DNA from: Terriglobia bacterium
GTDB lineage: Bacteria > Acidobacteriota > Terriglobia > JAJPHL01 > JAPKYU01
Assembly (NCBI GenBank): GCA_965223005.1
Contig: CBDCVK010000010.1
Location: 1,024,001 to 1,088,000, forward strand
DNA: 64,000 nucleotides
Direction of reading: 5' to 3'
Positions 1 through 49,813 of this stretch are shown piece after piece (the stretch's first letter is position 1; every line of letters begins with the position of its first letter). Position numbers and translations under genes: made by a program. The notes beneath the pieces are model-generated. The model saw nothing but the letters and a program-made list of their open reading frames with translations. It was not told the origin of the DNA and made no database searches.

Positions 1-888
1 GATCGCGACCAGGTCGGCGAGGGTGTCCGCCCCCACGTGGCTGGCCACCAGGGGAGCCCCCACGACACGGGCCTTGGGATGCGTCAGCAGGCCCAGGCGG
101 TGAGCCAGCTCGGTCAGCGCCGTCGTTGTGCGCTGCCCGGCCAGGTATTCGTGCTCGACCAGCGACTTGTAGGGTTTCTGGCCGATGGACTGCACGTCCA
201 GATTGAAGAACAGGTCGCGCATCGTAGAGTTGCCGACCAGAATGGCCTCGTAAATCTCATGGCGCACGATTCCCAGTGTCTGACACATCGCCCGCAGCTC
301 GTAGTTGACTGCCGTGATCACACTCTTGTGGAGTTCACCCTGGAATGGGCCGGAATCGTAGGAGATGCGGTGCATGATGTCGCTGCCGCCGAAGCGCTGA
401 GGGTTCTCCAGCGAGCCCAGGCAGGCGACCGCGCCCGTCTCCAGGTCCACGAGCTCGACAACAATGGTGGTGGTACCCAGGTCAATGGCCAGGCCGTAAA
501 GGTGGCCGCGGTAGTGGTCAACCACCTCGCCGTCGTAGAGGACTTTGTCGCCGGCGCGGGTGACCAACGGATCCAGTTCAACTGCGGTGGCGGCGGAACT
601 GGTCAGAATCTGCGGGCGGCGGCGGAGCAGTTCGAACGCAACGTCAATGTCGGGATCTTCGACCACCGCCTGGCAGGCCAGCCGGTAGTTCTCCCGCAGG
701 AACTCTTCCGCCTCGGTGCGCGGACATAAGGCCTCCACGCCGCGCTTGATTTCCACGATGCATTCGTGACAGATGCCGCTGCGGCCGCAGGAGGTGGGCA
801 CCTGCACGGCGAGATCGTCGGCATAGTCGAAAACGGTGCGGCCCCGCTCCAGGCTGCAGCGGCTGCTGTCATAGGAGATGTGGGCCAT
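1..888 (-). CDS. ASKHA-domain reductive activator of corrinoid proteins (RACo/RamA-like, DUF4445) with N-terminal 2Fe-2S domain; runs off the window edge
   Basis: Not in ORF track; read by hand from ATG at 888: MAHISYDSSRC...PTSCGRSGICHEC...YRLACQA (2Fe-2S), then GLAIDLGTTT, ENPQRFGGSDIMHRI, VGNSTM, SHVGAD (RACo motifs); open frame to position 1. Confidence 0.9.
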   Translation of the reverse strand, partial: MAHISYDSSRCSLERGRTVFDYADDLAVQVPTSCGRSGICHECIVEIKRGVEALCPRTEAEEFLRENYRLACQAVVEDPDIDVAFELLRRRPQILTSSAATAVELDPLVTRAGDKVLYDGEVVDHYRGHLYGLAIDLGTTTIVVELVDLETGAVACLGSLENPQRFGGSDIMHRISYDSGPFQGELHKSVITAVNYELRAMCQTLGIVRHEIYEAILVGNSTMRDLFFNLDVQSIGQKPYKSLVEHEYLAGQRTTTALTELAHRLGLLTHPKARVVGAPLVASHVGADTLADLVAI

Positions 889-892
889 CTTT

Positions 893-928
893 GCTCAGGA
901 GGTTCCCGGGGCTCAGGAGGTTCCCGGG
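893..928. repeat. Perfect 18-bp tandem duplication (gctcaggaggttcccggg x2)
   Basis: Seen directly in the spacer before the RACo start codon. Confidence 0.95.
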
Positions 929-929
929 G

Positions 930-1172
930 TCAGGCAGTTTCCCACGCCTTTCGGTAATCCAGCTTGTCGTCGCTGGCGCACACGGGCAGCTCCCCAGCCT
1001 GCTTGGGCTTGCGCTTGTTGCGGCAGCCAAACTGCGCCGTGCATTGGTCCAGGCGGTTCTTGTAAGGGCAACGCCGGAGAGACAGCTCGTCGGCGTGCGC
1101 CGCGATCCCCGTCAGGATTTCGGTGAGCCGGTCCAGGCGTTTTTGGTACTCGTGTTGGTCGATTTTCTCCAT
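930..1172 (-). CDS. Small Cys-containing hypothetical protein (Cx8Cx5Cx14C)
   Basis: 80-aa ORF tightly packed between the corrinoid protein and RACo on the same strand. Confidence 0.75.
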   Translation of the reverse strand: MEKIDQHEYQKRLDRLTEILTGIAAHADELSLRRCPYKNRLDQCTAQFGCRNKRKPKQAGELPVCASDDKLDYRKAWETA

Positions 1173-1188
1173 GCCGTCGCCCTAGAGT

Positions 1189-1938
1189 CTAGACCGGCAC
1201 CCCCATCAGCCGCTTGGCTAGCGCGACGCAGGCCATCGCGTCCTTGCCGTAACCGTCGGCTCCCATGTCGTCGGCAAAGTCCTGTGTGACAGGCGCGCCG
1301 CCGACCATGATTTTCACGTTGTCCCGCAGGTCGGCGTCAATAAAGGCTTCGATCGTCTTGCCCATGTTGGGCATGGTGGTGGTCAGCAGCGCGGACATCC
1401 CCATCAGGGGGGCCTCGTGCTCCTCGACGGCCTCAATGAACCGGTCCGCCGAGGTGTCCACTCCCAGGTCAATCACCACAAAGCCGGTGCCTCGCAACAT
1501 CATGATGCACAGGTTCTTGCCGATGTCGTGCAGGTCTCCTTTGACGGTGCCCATGACCACCTTGGCAATGGGCTTAACGCCGGAGGCCGACAGGATGGGC
1601 TCAATGTAGGCCATGCCCGCCTTCATTGCCCGAGCGCAGGCCAGAACTTCCGGCACAAAGATGAAGTTCTCCCGGAACTTGATGCCGACAATCCCCATGC
1701 CGGCAATCAAGCCGTCGTCCATCACCTCCAGCGCCACGGTCCCTGCCTCCAGCTCCTCTTTGGTCAGTTGATCCACCGTGCCGTTGTCACCGTCAATCAG
1801 CGCCGCCGCGATGGTCTGCATTTTCGGCCTGACCTTCGCGAAGGTGTCAATCATGCGCTGCCGCTCTTCGGGACGCTCGATGTACTCTTCGATCTCCTGC
1901 CGGATGAAGTCGTTGGAAATGTCGCTGAGCTCCGCCAT
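1189..1938 (-). CDS. Cobalamin (corrinoid)-binding methyltransferase cognate protein
   Basis: B12 cap domain (GLIAGMGIVG..F...FVPEVL) plus GTVKGDLHDIGKN base-off/His-on motif, SALLTTTM, MVGGAPVT. Confidence 0.95.
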   Translation of the reverse strand: MAELSDISNDFIRQEIEEYIERPEERQRMIDTFAKVRPKMQTIAAALIDGDNGTVDQLTKEELEAGTVALEVMDDGLIAGMGIVGIKFRENFIFVPEVLACARAMKAGMAYIEPILSASGVKPIAKVVMGTVKGDLHDIGKNLCIMMLRGTGFVVIDLGVDTSADRFIEAVEEHEAPLMGMSALLTTTMPNMGKTIEAFIDADLRDNVKIMVGGAPVTQDFADDMGADGYGKDAMACVALAKRLMGVPV

Positions 1939-1959
1939 AGTGTGTTCCTAAGCCCGTTC

Positions 1960-2997
1960 CTAGTTGGCCGAGGCGTGCTGCCGGTGCCACTCGCGCACGG
2001 CCCCGGGAATCTCCTTAAGGTTCTCGACCGTAGTCTGCAGCGGGATGGCGCACTCCGGGCCCACCAACTGCACGCCCGCGTCCAGGTTCTTCCAAACCTC
2101 TTGCCGGACTTCCTCAGGGCCCCTCGAATACAGGATCTCCGGATTGTTGATGTTTCCCACCAGCGAGATGCGGTTCTTCATGATCGCCATCGATTCGGCG
2201 GGGTCGTTCTTGGAATCGTAGTGAAACGCCGCGAATCCGGTCTGCGCAATGTACTCCATGCGGTCCAGCGTGCGGCCACAGATGTGCATAATCAGCGGAA
2301 TCGGAATCCGCTCGGCAAACTCGATGTGCATGTCGCGCAGGTAGCGCCGGTAGTACTCGCCGCTGACCAGGTCGCCGGTGGCGTGGTCGGGCAGAGTCAG
2401 GGCATCGGCGCCCGCTTCGATCTGGGCCAGGCCAAAGTCAATGGTGACCTGCTTGAGTGCCTCCAGGCACTGCATGGTCTTGCCCGGATCATCCAGCGAC
2501 AGCAGCAGAAACGGCTCCACGCCGAAGCAGTGGTAGGCCAGCGACCAGGGTCCCATCGTCTTGCCGACGATCGCCACCTCGTCGCCGAACTCTCGGCGCA
2601 GAATCTTGATGGCCTGGATCACGCACTGCATGTCGGGATGCTTCAGCACGTCCGCGGGAATCCGGATGTCTTCCGGCTTCTCGAAGATCGGCTCGCGCAT
2701 TTTCACCGTCGGCCAGTTGTCTTTCTGCTCCCACTGGATCTTGCAGCCCAGTGCGGAAGACTCCTGAATGATGCTGAAGACCGGCATGATGGTGTCGAAG
2801 CCGAACTCGGTGTGTCCGGTGGCGGCCAGCCGCGCCATCAGTTCCGGCTTGCGGTTGGCGTCCGGGAAGGGTGCGTCCACCAGATCCATCATCTCCACCG
2901 TGGCCACCGAGGTGGGGTTGCAGACCGGCGTGCGGTCCACCGGCTCGCGGCGCAAGGCGGCCAGCACGCGCTGGCGACTCGTCATTGGTCCGACCAT
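1960..2997 (-). CDS. MtaA/CmuA-family methylcobamide methyltransferase (URO-D fold)
   Basis: Starts MTSRQRVLAAL; GPWSLA, QIEAGADA, Zn ligands MHICG ... GPECA, LVGNINN. Confidence 0.9.
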   Translation of the reverse strand: MVGPMTSRQRVLAALRREPVDRTPVCNPTSVATVEMMDLVDAPFPDANRKPELMARLAATGHTEFGFDTIMPVFSIIQESSALGCKIQWEQKDNWPTVKMREPIFEKPEDIRIPADVLKHPDMQCVIQAIKILRREFGDEVAIVGKTMGPWSLAYHCFGVEPFLLLSLDDPGKTMQCLEALKQVTIDFGLAQIEAGADALTLPDHATGDLVSGEYYRRYLRDMHIEFAERIPIPLIMHICGRTLDRMEYIAQTGFAAFHYDSKNDPAESMAIMKNRISLVGNINNPEILYSRGPEEVRQEVWKNLDAGVQLVGPECAIPLQTTVENLKEIPGAVREWHRQHASAN

Positions 2998-3018
2998 CTC
3001 CTTCTCCTCTCTTTCCCT

Positions 3019-3654
3019 CTACGCTTTTTGCTGGCTCGGCGCGACCAACTGGCCGCGGGAGGCAGCCGCCTCTTCTTCGCGCAACACCGCGCGCAGGTTC
3101 AAGGTGCGAACCAGCAACAACCCGACCAGCGCATCGTGGGTCTGCCCGCAGGGGAATGCCACCCGGTCGGCGCTGCCTTCCACCGGCGACATCTCGGCCA
3201 GCTTCCGGAATCCGGCTGCGATGGCTTCCACCCGCTTAGACTTGTCTTCCTCGGGCCCGTCTGCCGTTACCTGGTAGACCCCCGCCCCCAGGCTCGCCAC
3301 GACGATGTTTCGGCCCGATCGTTTGTCAAAGGCGCGGAGCGGCTTCGGTTCGAGCGCCGGGGTGGAGGGCAGCTTGCATGCCTCCAGAAAACCACGCTTG
3401 GCCCCAGCCTGGTGCGCCGAGCCACAGGAGAAGCGGAGCCGAACGTCCGTCCGCTCCGCCCCCGCCAGGTTCTCGAGCGCCCGGGCCACAAATTCGATTC
3501 GTTCGCGAACGCCTTCCAGCCGGCTGTAGCTGTGCACCAAGTATTCCGGCTGGTGACCGCCATCCTGGCGATAGAGAGCAACGGTGATGTCCTGGCAATG
3601 GGGATCCATCGGGACCAGTTCGACGCGTTTACCCAGATCCAGCGTTAGGCCCAT
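3019..3654 (-). CDS. Hypothetical protein with two FxCGxxxH motifs; first gene of the corrinoid operon
   Basis: ATG 3654 preceded by AGGAGG; 211 aa; LRFSCGSAH and VAFPCGQTH. Confidence 0.8.
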   Translation of the reverse strand: MGLTLDLGKRVELVPMDPHCQDITVALYRQDGGHQPEYLVHSYSRLEGVRERIEFVARALENLAGAERTDVRLRFSCGSAHQAGAKRGFLEACKLPSTPALEPKPLRAFDKRSGRNIVVASLGAGVYQVTADGPEEDKSKRVEAIAAGFRKLAEMSPVEGSADRVAFPCGQTHDALVGLLLVRTLNLRAVLREEEAAASRGQLVAPSQQKA

Positions 3655-3717
3655 AGTCAGGATCCTCCTGGCAGAGAGTGCCGGCCGGCAGGGAGTCAAG
3701 CCGGAAGGGAATCAGGT

Positions 3718-3785
3718 TTGACATCCTGCCTGCTTGTCTGCTAAGCTGACACTTCAGTATACCCCAGTTGGCAGCAAGCTGTAAA
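3718..3785. promoter_or_regulatory. Putative overlapping divergent sigma70 promoters
   Basis: + strand TTGACA(3718)-N18-TAAGCT with extended TG; - strand TTTACA-N18-TATACT (3785-3756). Confidence 0.5.
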
Positions 3786-3807
3786 GCCCCAGGAAGGTGT
3801 CAAGCCG

Positions 3808-4626
3808 ATGGTTGAGTCTCTCCAGCCAGTCGCTCGCAGGTTGCTCAGCGAGGGTATCGTCGAGCAGATCACCGCTATGATTGCGCGCAACGTGTTCCAG
3901 CCGGGCGACCGCCTCCCCTCCGAGAAGGAGCTCTGCCGGCAGTTCCGGGTGGGCCGGACCTCGGTTCGGGAAGCACTGCGGTCGCTCTCGGTGATGGGGA
4001 TCCTGGAATCGCACGCGGGCGAAGGAACCTTCGTTTGCCTCAACCCGGGCCGCTATCTGGAGCGGGCCTTTCAGTGGGGCCTGCTGCTGGACCGCAAGGT
4101 AGTCGAGGACCTGGTGGAAACCCGGTTGATGCTGGAGTCGCAAACGGCCGATCTGGCTGCCCAGAAGGCAACGAAGAAAGACCTGAGCGACATCGAAGTG
4201 GCCCTTCAGGGCATGGAGAAATCGCTGGCCGATCCGGAGAAATACCTGGAAAGTGACCTGCGGTTCCACCTGGGCATCGCCCGGGCGACGCAGAACTCGA
4301 TCCTACACAACCTGCTGACCACCATCCGGGGCTATCTGCAGGCCTTTATCCGGGAGACCCTGGCGTCTTCCCCGGCCAGCGACTCGACCCGGCGAGCCGC
4401 TGTTTCCCTCGCCGAGCACAAGAAAATCTTGCGAGCCCTCAAGAAAGGTGACCCCGAGGAAGCGCGGCGGGCCATGACCGAGCACATCGTTTCCTCGCGA
4501 GACGATCTGAGGAAGCATCTGTCGAACCGTCCCCATGCGCGAGACCGCGACGTTGTTAGTCTTCTGCCCCGACCAGAAGGGGCTCGTGGCCAGGATTTCC
4601 GGGTTCATCTTTCGCCACGGCGGTAA
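3808..4626 (+). CDS. GntR/FadR family transcriptional regulator
   Basis: PGDRLPSEKELC...VGRTSVREAL wHTH plus FCD domain (FHLGIARAT.N, EHKKIL). Confidence 0.92.
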   Translation: MVESLQPVARRLLSEGIVEQITAMIARNVFQPGDRLPSEKELCRQFRVGRTSVREALRSLSVMGILESHAGEGTFVCLNPGRYLERAFQWGLLLDRKVVEDLVETRLMLESQTADLAAQKATKKDLSDIEVALQGMEKSLADPEKYLESDLRFHLGIARATQNSILHNLLTTIRGYLQAFIRETLASSPASDSTRRAAVSLAEHKKILRALKKGDPEEARRAMTEHIVSSRDDLRKHLSNRPHARDRDVVSLLPRPEGARGQDFRVHLSPRR

Positions 4627-5389
4627 CATTCTGGACGCCGACCAGCACACGGATCTCGAGACCGGGGTGTTTCTGGCGCGGATGGAATGGGATCTGGAGG
4701 GGTTCGAGATCCCGCGCGCGCAAATCGCCGCGCGTTTTCAGCCGCTGGCCCAAGAACACCAGATACAGTTCGAGGTCCACTTCAGCGATGACGCTCCGAA
4801 ACTCGCGATCTTCGCCTCCGGGATGCTGCATTGCCTCCAGGATCTGCTGCTCCGGCACCGGGCCGGCGAGTTCCAGGCCGAGATCGCAATGGTCCTCAGC
4901 AATCATCTGGAGGCCAATGCGGTGGCGCAGGAGTTCGGAATCCCGTTCCTTCACTTCCCCATTACCGCGGCCAGCAAGAAGGAGCAGGAGGCCAGGGAGA
5001 TCGACGAGCTGCGGGCCAGAGGAATTGACCTGATCGTGCTGGCCCGCTATATGCAGATTCTGAGCGAGGATTTTGTCGCCGCCTTTCACAACCGGATCAT
5101 CAATATCCACCATTCCTTTCTTCCGGCCTTTGCGAGGGGCCAAGCCTACCACCAGGCTTTCCAACGTGGGGTGAAGCTGATCGGAGCCACCTCTCACTAC
5201 GTGACAATGGATCTGGATGAAGGTCCGATCATTGACCAGGAGGTCGTGCGCGTGAGCCATCGTGACTCAGTCCAGGATCTGATTCGCAAGGGGAAGGATC
5301 TGGAACGAGTGGTTCTGGCCCGCGCAGTGCGCCTGCACCTGGCTCATCGGGTGTTGACTTACGGGAACAAGACCGTTGTTTTCGACTAA
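4535..5389 (+). CDS. purU: Formyltetrahydrofolate deformylase
   Basis: ACT domain CPDQKGLVA; INIHHSFLPAF, GVKLIGATSHYVT, DEGPII, NKTVVF. Confidence 0.96.
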   Translation: MRETATLLVFCPDQKGLVARISGFIFRHGGNILDADQHTDLETGVFLARMEWDLEGFEIPRAQIAARFQPLAQEHQIQFEVHFSDDAPKLAIFASGMLHCLQDLLLRHRAGEFQAEIAMVLSNHLEANAVAQEFGIPFLHFPITAASKKEQEAREIDELRARGIDLIVLARYMQILSEDFVAAFHNRIINIHHSFLPAFARGQAYHQAFQRGVKLIGATSHYVTMDLDEGPIIDQEVVRVSHRDSVQDLIRKGKDLERVVLARAVRLHLAHRVLTYGNKTVVFD

Positions 5390-5497: not shown

Positions 5498-6028
5498 ATG
5501 GGTGCCGCACTGACTGCAGGATTGTCCAGGCTGGTTGATGAAGCCGGCAAGTCCGGAGGGGGTCTGTCCGGGCAGGTTCTGGAAAAAATTGTCGCCGAAC
5601 TCGCCAAGGCCTTCCATGTAAAATTGGACGAAGTGGCCGTTTTGCACCTGACCCACGGCGGCTCCTTGCTTTCCTTTATTTATCCGTTAAAGCTGCAAAA
5701 AGTGGGCAACATCCCGATGACCAGCACCTCCTCACTAGCGGTGCGGACCGTGCGCGAGAAGCGGCCGGAAATGATCAACAATTTCCCCGCCCAAAAACAC
5801 CCGACAATTTTTGAGGCCATCGCACTGAGCGCCGAGACCAAGGGCAGCCCCATTCAGAAGATTATGAGCGCCCCCTTGGTGGTGGATGGCAAGGCGGTAG
5901 GGGTGATCCAGGTCTCTCGCAAGGGCAAGACCGCCCCGGCATCGGGTCCTGATTTCACCATCAAAGACCTTACCACTATGATTTCCGTGGCCGGGGTACT
6001 GGCGAAGGCTTTCAAAGGCGCCAAGTAG
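5498..6028 (+). CDS. Stand-alone GAF domain protein
   Basis: IMSAPLVVDGKAVGVIQVSRK...DFT GAF signature; GGAGG RBS. Confidence 0.8.
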   Translation: MGAALTAGLSRLVDEAGKSGGGLSGQVLEKIVAELAKAFHVKLDEVAVLHLTHGGSLLSFIYPLKLQKVGNIPMTSTSSLAVRTVREKRPEMINNFPAQKHPTIFEAIALSAETKGSPIQKIMSAPLVVDGKAVGVIQVSRKGKTAPASGPDFTIKDLTTMISVAGVLAKAFKGAK

Positions 6029-6048: not shown

Positions 6049-6744
6049 TCAGCTCTCAGGTTTCAGTACCTGCGTCAGCCAGCCAACGATGGTGTCCAGC
6101 GCTTCGGTGTAGACCTGTGTCTGCGGCCGGCCGCGGACGCGGAAGGAGTGGTCGCCGTCCTCAATCCAGACCAACGTGGCACGGCGTCCGGGCCCACTGC
6201 CGGCGAGCCGTTCGACGACCGGGACCAACAAATCCCTTTGGGCAAAGGCATCTCGGGTCCCGGACAGGAATAGCATCGGGCAGCGAATGGAGTACAGGTG
6301 CTGGTCCCGGATCTGCTGCGGCCTGCCGAGCGGGTGGAGCGGATAACCTAGAAACACCAGCGCGTGGGCGGGGTAGCCGGCGGCGACCAGATGGGAGGCG
6401 ATGCGCCCGCCCATGGACTTGCCGCCTAGCACAATTTTCGGCTCTCGAGGGGCAGGCACCTTCGCTTGCCCGCGCGCGAAGTCGGCCGCGGCACGATAGC
6501 AGGTTTCCAACAGTGGCCGGCGGTCTGGCAGGTTCCGTTTGGCTTCCTTGTAAGGGAAATTGAAGCGCACCGCCAAGCAGCCGCGCTCAGCCAGGCCGTC
6601 GTGGAACACCCGCATGAACTCGGAATCTATGCCGCTGCCCGCGCCGTGGGCAAGCACGGCGACGGTGCGTGAGGCGGGCTCTCCGGCCAAGGCCGCCGAG
6701 ACGCGCTCGGCCCCGGGAACCGCAATGGTGACCCGCTGTTCCAA
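6049..6744 (-). CDS. Alpha/beta hydrolase (KANL3/Tex30-like)
   Basis: LAHGAG, GGKSMGGR nucleophile elbow, GYPLHP, GTRD, GDHSF. Confidence 0.88.
   Translation of the reverse strand: MEQRVTIAVPGAERVSAALAGEPASRTVAVLAHGAGSGIDSEFMRVFHDGLAERGCLAVRFNFPYKEAKRNLPDRRPLLETCYRAAADFARGQAKVPAPREPKIVLGGKSMGGRIASHLVAAGYPAHALVFLGYPLHPLGRPQQIRDQHLYSIRCPMLFLSGTRDAFAQRDLLVPVVERLAGSGPGRRATLVWIEDGDHSFRVRGRPQTQVYTEALDTIVGWLTQVLKPES

Positions 6745-48067: not shown

Positions 48068-49812
<1,745 letters not shown>

Positions 49813-49813
<1 letters not shown>

Follow-up and report, generated by a model that had tools for sequence, protein, structure and literature searches.

The left end of a 64,000-nucleotide (nt) stretch of DNA from the Terriglobia bacterium assembly GCA_965223005.1 (contig CBDCVK010000010.1, G000:C10:1024001-1088000; hereafter the window) carries the first five genes of an eight-gene operon for corrinoid-dependent methyl transfer, which faces a divergent gene for a GntR-type regulator. 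The 15 kb to the left of the window were analyzed as well. We lean toward reading the operon as a GntR-regulated cobalamin methyl-harvesting hub in which methyl groups flow inward, to tetrahydrofolate (THF), and we give this reading somewhat better than even prospects. An earlier note on the window, written from its letters alone, had described a corrinoid methyl-transfer operon tied to THF, and the MeTr and MetF genes found in the operon bear this out. The THF-linked corrinoid operon, the GntR regulator, and two new components of that interpretation stand, whereas a missing substrate-specific methyltransferase (MT1) and a broad link to formate do not.

In the hub that we favor, a single corrinoid protein, C, would be served by two methyltransferases, A and T. 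Enzyme A, with its His-Cys-Cys zinc site, would work in complex with protein U, which would sit over the zinc, and A-U would load Co(I) with a methyl group taken from a small donor able to permeate membranes. The MeTr-like protein T would exchange methyl groups between the carrier and THF and would, in this bacterium, pass them to THF. The activase RACo, with ATP and a four-cysteine (Cys4) module, z, would keep the cobalt as Co(I). Protein F, which would interconvert methyl-THF and methylene-THF, would here oxidize methyl-THF, after which FolD (encoded elsewhere) and PurU would release formate or feed one-carbon (C1) biosynthesis. In many other genomes, a homocysteine methyltransferase, H, would form a third spoke through which the same carrier makes methionine. 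GntR would repress the eight-gene operon.

An eight-gene operon and its conservation

Minus-strand positions 1 to 3699 of the window hold five co-oriented genes, encoding U, A, C, z, and RACo, with gaps of 16 to 41 nt between them and with the plus-strand pair gntR-purU facing them; all seven genes claimed by the earlier note lie where it had placed them. Its suggestion that the operon runs off the left edge also proved right, as the flank holds the remainder of RACo followed, on the same strand, by the genes for three further proteins. Protein F (515 amino acids [aa]) is a MetF/MetV-type methylene-THF reductase with an MTHFR domain and a C-terminal, MetV-like DUF5981 domain. Protein T (350 aa) is a MeTr-like pterin-binding methyltransferase (PF00809) whose nearest relative is methyl-THF:corrinoid methyltransferase (MeTr). 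RACo, F, and T follow one another with 4-nt overlaps, and 8 bases separate T from the last gene, which encodes v, an 88-aa PF13769 protein.

The flank, which the earlier note had singled out as the place to look for MeTr, MetF, FolD, and MttB, holds the first two; FolD is encoded elsewhere in the genome, and MttB is not encoded there. By the account of that note, a canonical MT1 of the MttB or MtaB type close by would have made this a known pathway. There is none, either at the locus or genome-wide: MttB (PF06253) and MtaB had no match anywhere in the 96%-complete genome, and both controls matched in Methanosarcina. The oxygen-respiring background is borne out by a heme-copper oxidase subunit I (COX1) in the same window (48068-49813, E 1e-147).

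A scan of species-representative genomes with A yielded 80 loci of other genomes, all counts for which include loci cut by contig ends. They carry about eight phylum labels (Acidobacteriota, Gemmatimonadota, Latescibacterota, Poribacteria, Lentisphaerota, Verrucomicrobiota, Planctomycetota, and Actinomycetota), and their records name soil, sediment, sea water, and sponges as habitats. One of the loci, L042, comes from a metagenome-assembled genome labeled Gemmatimonas phototrophica. Across them A is 78 to 86% and C 69 to 91% identical. The recurring order found with tblastn is a divergent GntR followed by U-A-C-z-RACo-MetF/V-MeTr-(H)-PF13769, and every locus keeps parts of it: U is found in 78 of the 80, C in 68, z in 63, RACo in 59, a GntR orthologue divergent to U in 50, MeTr in 45, the PF13769 protein in 42, MetF/V in 41, the homocysteine methyltransferase in 27, a PhyH-like dioxygenase in 10, and PurU in 3. 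U-A-C-z is kept in all five loci of relatives (L004-L008). A survey of 41 genomes of the class found A in 6 and C, at an identity of at least 79%, in exactly the same 6. Gene linkage, whose absence from other genomes the earlier note would have counted against its proposal, is thus conserved far beyond chance.

In a tree of A restricted to family members, the phylum label changes 14 times, against a minimum of 7 and a shuffled mean of 41.9, with some mixed pairs. The distribution of the cassette is patchy. The labels on the tree are clustered, with mixing in places; because bin labels may be wrong, we claim patchiness and not horizontal transfer events.

A homocysteine S-methyltransferase, H (PF02574, 339 aa), identified by clustering of open reading frames (ORFs), lies inside or beside the cassette in 27 of the 80 loci, and the conserved core is therefore a split methionine synthase. 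The Terriglobia genome itself encodes MetE and one 630-aa YitJ-like fusion with the homocysteine-binding domain PF02574, on contig C2, and none in the operon; no full-length MetH was seen in it, its PF00809 matches being FolP and the MeTr of the operon only. The cassette as a simple replacement of MetH is ruled out by MetE in this genome and by the canonical MetH reactivation domain found in two of five other cassette genomes tested.

A split methionine synthase has been shown genetically in aerobic Phaeobacter (PMC5764234), and the MtgBCDE hub of Ruegeria uses one corrinoid protein for both glycine betaine demethylation and methionine synthesis (PMC12478193). The system resembles those of the Roseobacters Ruegeria pomeroyi and Phaeobacter inhibens in having a stand-alone corrinoid protein for pterin and substrate modules and, in the 27 loci with H, for a homocysteine module, and in an ATP-dependent ferredoxin-DUF4445/RACo-type activase (there RamA-like) that replaces the MetH reactivation domain, all in aerobic hosts (PMC12478193, PMC5764234). 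The operon thus has the stand-alone C, the separate pterin module, and the RACo-type activase of the Roseobacter hub and lacks its MttB-family MtgB, in place of which the substrate module consists of U and the MtaA/CmuA-family enzyme A. It further differs in forming one compact operon that includes MetF/MetV, the PF13769 protein, the Cys4 protein, and a GntR regulator.

Some loci carry additional genes. In 10 of the 80, all from Poribacteria (L043:14757-16237 and nine others), a PhyH dioxygenase gene and a 227-aa gene lie between RACo and MetF/V, and in L021 a PhyH gene occupies the place upstream of U where gntR stands elsewhere. Some Poribacteria cassettes (L043:11085-11864) have an HNH endonuclease gene and a gene for a 123-aa protein between A and C, an insertion that looks like a small mobile element within the operon.

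Zinc methyltransferase A and protein U

A (345 aa; 1960-2997, minus strand) is a zinc methyltransferase of the MtaA/CmuA family with a URO-D TIM barrel, and is one of only two URO-D genes in the genome, the other being hemE. It matches PF01208 (E 3e-66; 224.2 bits, cut-off 23.9) and exceeds the cut-offs of TIGR01463, "MtaA/CmuA family" (256.7 bits against 235.4), and PRK06252 (253.9 against 244), while staying below the equivalog cut-offs for MtaA (NF040654, 234.8 against 400) and MtbA (NF041608, 200.7 against 600). Its closest solved structure is MtaA (4ay7, E 2.3e-54), with HxC and C aligned. Relatives of A number in the thousands, with identities of 79% or more throughout the best 120. A tblastn search of 72,556 plasmids returned 13 records, all hemE-like or generic URO-D proteins below 30% identity, and no cmuA record.

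The zinc motif of A reads H238-I-C240 ... C316; H238 and C316 are invariant and C240 is present in at least 90% of 33 sequences. We take the equivalent residues of MtaA to be its zinc ligands, an identification supported by PMC10418091. According to the same source, a His-Cys-Cys set marks the S-methyltransferases of the UroD superfamily, and O-demethylases swap the Cys ligands for carboxylates (PMC10418091). By its TIGR01463 score, its closest structure, and these ligands, A classes as an S/halide-type enzyme.

This classification bears on whether the operon could encode an O-demethylase of an aerobic host, composed of an MT I, a corrinoid protein, an MT II, and an activating enzyme, that acts on methoxylated aromatics or methylated sugars with a carboxylate inducer such as vanillate for GntR. 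GntR-type regulators of vanillate demethylation exist, the four-component layout with MetF matches the logic of such a system, and glycoside hydrolase genes lie near some loci, although these hydrolases are not conserved across the loci. The MT I enzymes of O-demethylases are UroD-superfamily proteins too, but with a carboxylate-substituted set of ligands (PMC10418091) where A keeps His-Cys-Cys. In addition, MtaA is the sole strong solved relative of A, and no O-demethylase-type chain appears at E <= 0.001 among its solved-structure matches. We regard the O-demethylase reading as highly improbable.

The statement in the earlier note that no recognizable MT1 is visible was a misreading. MeTr is the enzyme of the THF side, and because MeTr serves that side and the genome is without MttB and MtaB, A itself is probably the substrate-side methyltransferase, by analogy with CmuA, MtsA, and MtpA. 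MtsA/MtsB of Methanosarcina (dimethylsulfide, methanethiol) likewise combine an MtaA-family zinc enzyme with a cognate corrinoid protein and do without an MT1 of the MttB/MtaB type (PMC10418091), and in MtpA/MtpC of Methanosarcina (methylmercaptopropionate) an MtaA-family enzyme works directly on a methyl thioether (bioRxiv 10.1101/548461). Those systems have coenzyme M as the acceptor and belong to strict anaerobes, whereas here the acceptor would be THF (homocysteine in relatives) and the hosts encode a heme-copper oxidase. We know of no U-like partner in the MtsA and MtpA systems.

Among bacterial systems, the type 1 mlp clusters of Kountz and Balskus also contain an MtaA-like (SCMT-like) His-Cys-Cys enzyme, a corrinoid protein, and an activase of the bacterial Ram/RACE type, and have been proposed to act on methyl-sulfur or methyl-selenium compounds (PMC10418091). 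They need at least two different Mlps, Mlp2 and Mlp3, have no methyltransferase for THF, and are confined to obligate anaerobes, chiefly Firmicutes (PMC10418091). In contrast, our operon has a single MtaA-like gene, contains MeTr and MetF, and belongs to an aerobic-type host.

The two uncharacterized components pointed out earlier, U and z, are real and conserved. U (3019-3654, minus strand) is a 211-aa protein of a new family; its conserved start is the ATG at 3654, and its ORF is open to a TTG at 3699. The 33 members share MDPH and HTYS motifs, F-x-C-G-x-x-H once per half (conserved Cys and His: C77, H81, C169, and H173), and a conserved C-terminal tail. The AlphaFold2 model (predicted local distance difference test [pLDDT] 89.7, predicted TM score 0.83) consists of two beta3-alpha-beta2-alpha repeats. 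U has no match in Pfam, NCBIfam, PDB sequences (antibody chains only, E ~1), or the ESM Atlas; Pfam searches with all 33 members gave two single matches only, both at E > 0.1, and Foldseek against the PDB gave none for the model at E <= 0.001. The best VIA-align match among 48,161 chains, urea carboxylase (Z 6.8, 87 residues, root-mean-square deviation 2.9), was set aside, as it lies inside the noise range of the tool. A profile search of 1.84 billion representative proteins returned only 278 clusters, of about the same length or fragments, none of them fused to another domain.

U adjoins A in 78 of the 80 loci, and the two loci without U have just 304 and 102 bases upstream of A. In all five "U-A only" Poribacteria genomes, a single C orthologue (83 to 89% identical) is encoded elsewhere. 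Complex prediction gave U-A a score of 0.85, with 0.00 for the best of three controls. Of 157 solved complexes, 116 attain the mark applied to this score, as do 2 of 215 mismatched pairs; these figures are only rough because our own alignments were used. The prediction runs agree in at least 77% of contacts, with partner pLDDT values of at least 86. On A, the predicted interface takes in residues 240 and 316-317, which include the zinc cysteines; on U, it takes in the strands at the N terminus, the HTYS motif, and residues 200-205 of the tail. U is accordingly modeled, and predicted, to be a subunit of A that caps or shapes its active site.

Read literally, the earlier note would make A a thiol-methylating second methyltransferase and U a new substrate-specific MT1 that loads C. 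Such a role would suit a protein that, like U, is kept in 78 of the 80 loci, resembles no known fold, and carries conserved Cys and His residues that could bind a catalytic metal. However, the pterin-binding MeTr already provides the second methyltransferase, and U is predicted at the active site of A instead of acting alone. Where the cassette is split, U stays with A and not with C, and a 211-aa protein of two small alpha/beta repeats is unlike any known TIM-barrel MT1. U as an MT1 seems hardly credible to us.

The corrinoid carrier, its activase, and the control region

C (249 aa; 1189-1938, minus strand) is a corrinoid (cobalamin-binding) methyl carrier with the Pfam domains B12-binding_2 (B12 cap) and B12-binding; its closest NCBIfam models, MtgC and methyltransferase cognate corrinoid protein, both score under their cut-offs. 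A and C have a gene each, with 21 nt in between, and they are likewise separate in the 68 of 80 loci that yielded both. In the Acidobacteriaceae metagenome-assembled genome at L009:11054-11798, the C gene was matched as two overlapping pieces, which suggests a frameshift or an assembly error.

The window holds the N-terminal 296 of the 543 aa of the RACo-type activase (1-888, minus strand, continuing to the left; full gene, L002:14257-15888), including its Fer2 and RACo_middle domains. The full protein (PF00111, PF17651, and PF14574) has the Fer2, RACo_middle, and C-terminal ASKHA architecture of RACo/AcsV activases, with E 1e-67 for RACo_C_ter, and its matches to the NCBIfam AcsV and RamA models are both under cut-off. 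It differs from RACo/AcsV in an extra Cys4 module, z, which is a separate 80-aa protein here (930-1172, minus strand) and an N-terminal fusion elsewhere. At its N terminus, z has a long helix, after which comes a loop region containing C-x8-C-x5-C-x14-C, whose cysteines (C35, C44, C50, and C65) are invariant in 28 sequences. It belongs to no Pfam or NCBIfam family, and its model (moderate pLDDT, 77.7) has no structural match in the PDB, with three Foldseek matches, all at E > 6. In many loci of Poribacteria, Gemmatimonadota, Latescibacterota, and Planctomycetota, z forms the N terminus of a RACo of 607 to 651 aa; this fusion assigns z to the activase, of which it is probably an extra metal or Fe-S module.

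The GntR regulator (272 aa; 3808-4626, plus strand; PF00392 and PF07729) belongs to the FadR/FCD subfamily, and its closest NCBIfam models, NanR and LldR, are both under cut-off. The spacer between gntR and U is 153 nt long. By consensus match, it contains a sigma-70-like promoter for the operon (3756-3785, minus strand; TTTACA, 18 nt, TATACT) with 10 of 12 consensus positions; the promoter scan gave 1 site against 0.0 expected in shuffles, and the TTTACA box recurs in most aligned intergenic regions. Five nt downstream of the -10 box lies a candidate GntR operator, a 17-nt imperfect palindrome (3735-3751) with two TGTC...GACA half-sites. Of 39 GntR-U intergenic regions, 35 have a shorter palindrome, GGTCWGACC/TGTCWGACA, at the corresponding position, and 9 of 38 further loci have it upstream of U, against a background of 83 matches in the 1.43 Mb of all 80 loci. 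The four regions without it are those of this genus and L023, which have the longer variant. Divergent control by GntR, as the earlier note had it, thus agrees with a palindrome conserved in most promoter regions, and because this palindrome has the GT...AC-type shape of a GntR-family operator, we strongly infer that the divergent GntR represses the operon. A B12 or S-adenosylmethionine (SAM) riboswitch does not explain the regulation, since an Rfam scan of 10 kb at E <= 1 returned none, its one match being a chance miRNA hit.

A second conserved element in these regions (3718-3723 in the window) is TGTCAA when read along the operon strand and TTGACA along that of gntR, and it lies 11 to 110 nt upstream of the U start in 35 of the 39. 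It may serve as the -35 box of the gntR promoter or as an additional half-site.

PurU (284 aa; 4535-5389, plus strand), with ACT and Formyl_trans_N domains, is a formyltetrahydrofolate deformylase (TIGR00655, 377.7 bits, cut-off 285.95), and its first 92 nt (4535-4626) are shared with the end of gntR. The link to formate drawn in the earlier note therefore has its gene beside the cassette here, but it is narrow, with purU next to gntR or the cassette in this genus and in only 3 of the 80 other loci (L013, L017, and L025). The FCD domain of GntR ends near residue 227 of 272, and in L013 gntR and purU lie 9 nt apart without overlap; the last 35 to 45 codons of gntR may be a nonconserved tail or reflect a late stop.

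In four metatranscriptome runs from two studies, contigs match close relatives of all genes and span the U/A, A/C, and C/z junctions, evidence that we treat as weak because DNA may be present in an RNA library. Summed contig depth in these runs is by far greatest, up to ~930, over the B12-binding part of the corrinoid gene (L002:16348-16681; window 1348-1681). It probably sums over the conserved parts of many organisms, and no ranking of genes was based on it.

Direction of methyl flow and the donor

The operon resembles the cmu genes of Methylobacterium extorquens CM4 (cmuA, cmuB, cmuC, metF2, folD, and purU), which likewise occur in an aerobic host with purU linked and combine an MtaA-like enzyme and a corrinoid carrier with a pterin methyltransferase that delivers to THF and a MetF/FolD/PurU route to formate (PMC3621897). 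Growth on chloromethane needs cmuA, cmuB, metF, and purU (PMC3621897). By gene families, a pterin methyltransferase, metF, and purU are linked here as well, whereas the CmuA-type fusion is absent: CmuA is one two-domain protein, and here A and C are encoded separately, with the obligate-looking partner U beside A. The activases differ too, a RACo-type protein with a Cys4 module here and a PaaE-like oxidoreductase in cmu clusters. This cmu-like gene set, together with the transcription of purU with gntR here and in L013, L017, and L025, favors inward flow. The flanks hold no conserved transporter (none belongs to the gene families seen in 10 or more of the 80 loci), which fits a small permeant donor.

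If the operon were a split cmu-like methyl-halide dehalogenase, A-U and C would stand for the two domains of CmuA, T would take the part of CmuB and F that of MetF2, PurU would have the same role, and the donor would be chloromethane, bromomethane, or iodomethane. A halide leaving group makes transfer to THF favorable, and methyl halides occur in the soil, sediment, sea-water, and sponge habitats of the carriers. A passes the TIGR01463 "MtaA/CmuA family" cut-off, no transporter is linked, as for a gas, and the set of A, C, the pterin-binding methyltransferase, metF, and purU matches the cmu genes described as essential (PMC3621897). Yet the plasmid search gave no cmuA record with which to compare A, and a newer anaerobic chloromethane system, CdmBCA, falls in an O-demethylase-like branch that is not that of A (PMC13222342). 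Dehalogenation also leaves the homocysteine module in 27 of 80 loci unexplained, and a GntR/FCD regulator would be an odd sensor of halomethanes. We consider a split dehalogenase unlikely.

The opposite direction, outward S-methylation of a thiol (or of sulfide or selenide), is a possible reading, with a minority share of our confidence. In it, MetF would make methyl-THF, MeTr would load C, and A-U would methylate a small thiol in the way that the homocysteine module does in methionine synthase, the product being a methyl thioether for detoxification, signaling, or biosynthesis. F and T suffice to supply methyl-THF from within the cassette, a homocysteine-methylating module accompanies it in 27 of 80 loci, and A has a thiol-activating His-Cys-Cys zinc site and is closest to the methylcobamide:CoM (coenzyme M) methyltransferase MtaA. 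Transfer from a methyl-corrinoid to a thiolate is favorable, and MtpA methylates mercaptopropionate robustly, while the reverse reaction needs substrate at high concentrations (bioRxiv 10.1101/548461). Set against this are purU, a gene of C1 oxidation and THF recycling that is cotranscribed with gntR here, and the catabolic look of a repressor-controlled, horizontally spread cassette. Among the gene families around the 80 loci, none linked to the cassette would make a candidate thiol. Cheap SAM-dependent thiol methyltransferases would, moreover, compete with a costly route through B12, ATP, and THF.

For the A-U step taken separately, a methyl-sulfur donor (thioether or sulfonium) is in our view the most probable single option, though short of an even chance. 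A methyl halide and outward thiol methylation are each distinctly less probable, and about equally so, which leaves a small share for other chemistry.

Several points weigh against the inward hub that we favor. Passing a methyl group from a thioether to THF would be uphill, as the energetics of Mtr and MetH indicate, and this uphill chemistry makes a halide or sulfonium donor, or the outward direction, more likely. GntR/FCD regulators usually sense carboxylates, which fits a volatile donor badly. Methylation of Co(I) from methylmercaptopropionate by MtpA is thermodynamically unfavorable (bioRxiv 10.1101/548461). Linkage of purU in 3 of the 80 other loci compares with 27 for the homocysteine methyltransferase, and the conserved purpose may be biosynthetic. 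The 80 loci, having been fetched with A, are silent on the frequency of a C-RACo-T core without U-A. By analogy, the barrel face that U covers in the predicted pose is one to which the corrinoid also needs access, so that U may need to move as a removable lid, or the pose may be wrong or imperfect. Finally, both direction and substrate are our inference.

Going further than the inward hub, we tentatively entertain, as a possibility clearly below even, that U-A is an unrecognized two-subunit enzyme, with a new protein family capping the zinc site of a methyltransferase of the methanogen type, and that the cassette is a globally distributed, oxygen-tolerant, B12-dependent sink for volatile methyl compounds that passes methyl groups to folate and, in many lineages, to methionine. 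Its donors would be methyl halides, methanethiol, dimethylsulfide, or sulfonium compounds, and Acidobacteriota, Gemmatimonadota, Latescibacterota, Poribacteria, and other common heterotrophs living in soil, sediment, sea water, and sponges would carry it. If the cassette drew on a methyl halide or on a volatile methyl-sulfur compound, it would represent an unaccounted biological sink for climate-relevant trace gases and offer a marker gene for it. A split cmu-like system would mean a widespread methyl-halide sink outside the Alphaproteobacteria, and outward flow a new B12-dependent route to methylated sulfur compounds. In either direction, the predicted U-A complex, the Cys4 RACo module, and the conserved operator are testable handles, and the same features bear on how Co(I) chemistry is kept up in oxygen-respiring bacteria.

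Corrinoid methyl-transfer systems have mostly been studied in methanogens and acetogens, with few aerobic examples, for chloromethane in methylotrophs and glycine betaine in Roseobacters. An aerobic host, as pointed out in the earlier note, is no novelty by itself, such use being known from cmu (PMC3621897) and from the MtgBCDE hub of Roseobacters (PMC12478193). The corrinoid three-component methyltransferase and the split MetH hub are likewise known kinds. What is new is the pairing of the MtaA-like module with U, RACo's Cys4 module, the GntR operator, and the spread across phyla of aerobic heterotrophs. The cassette is near-invariant, regulated, and common in abundant, poorly cultured bacteria of soil, sediment, and sponges, and no described family accommodates two of its proteins. 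We found no description of the cassette or of U in the literature, with subscription journals and supplements outside the search.

Several neighboring genes were not counted in the operon. A lipoprotein-like M19 membrane dipeptidase gene (G000:C10:1019133-1020395) follows the PF13769 gene almost without a gap and is absent from the other loci; genes for an OPT oligopeptide transporter and a cyclophilin adjoin it. A homologue of SBP56/methanethiol oxidase about 30 kb away was left out of the system, as nothing similar recurs in the 10-kb flanks of the 80 loci. On the 3' side of purU lie genes for a stand-alone GAF-domain protein (5498-6028, plus strand) and an Abhydrolase_11 protein (6049-6744, minus strand), neither linked to the cassette in other loci. 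Elsewhere in the genome, at 62114-70101 of contig C6, five adjacent genes with B12-binding domains (ORFs of 387 to 543 aa) probably encode B12-binding radical SAM enzymes with no relation to the operon.

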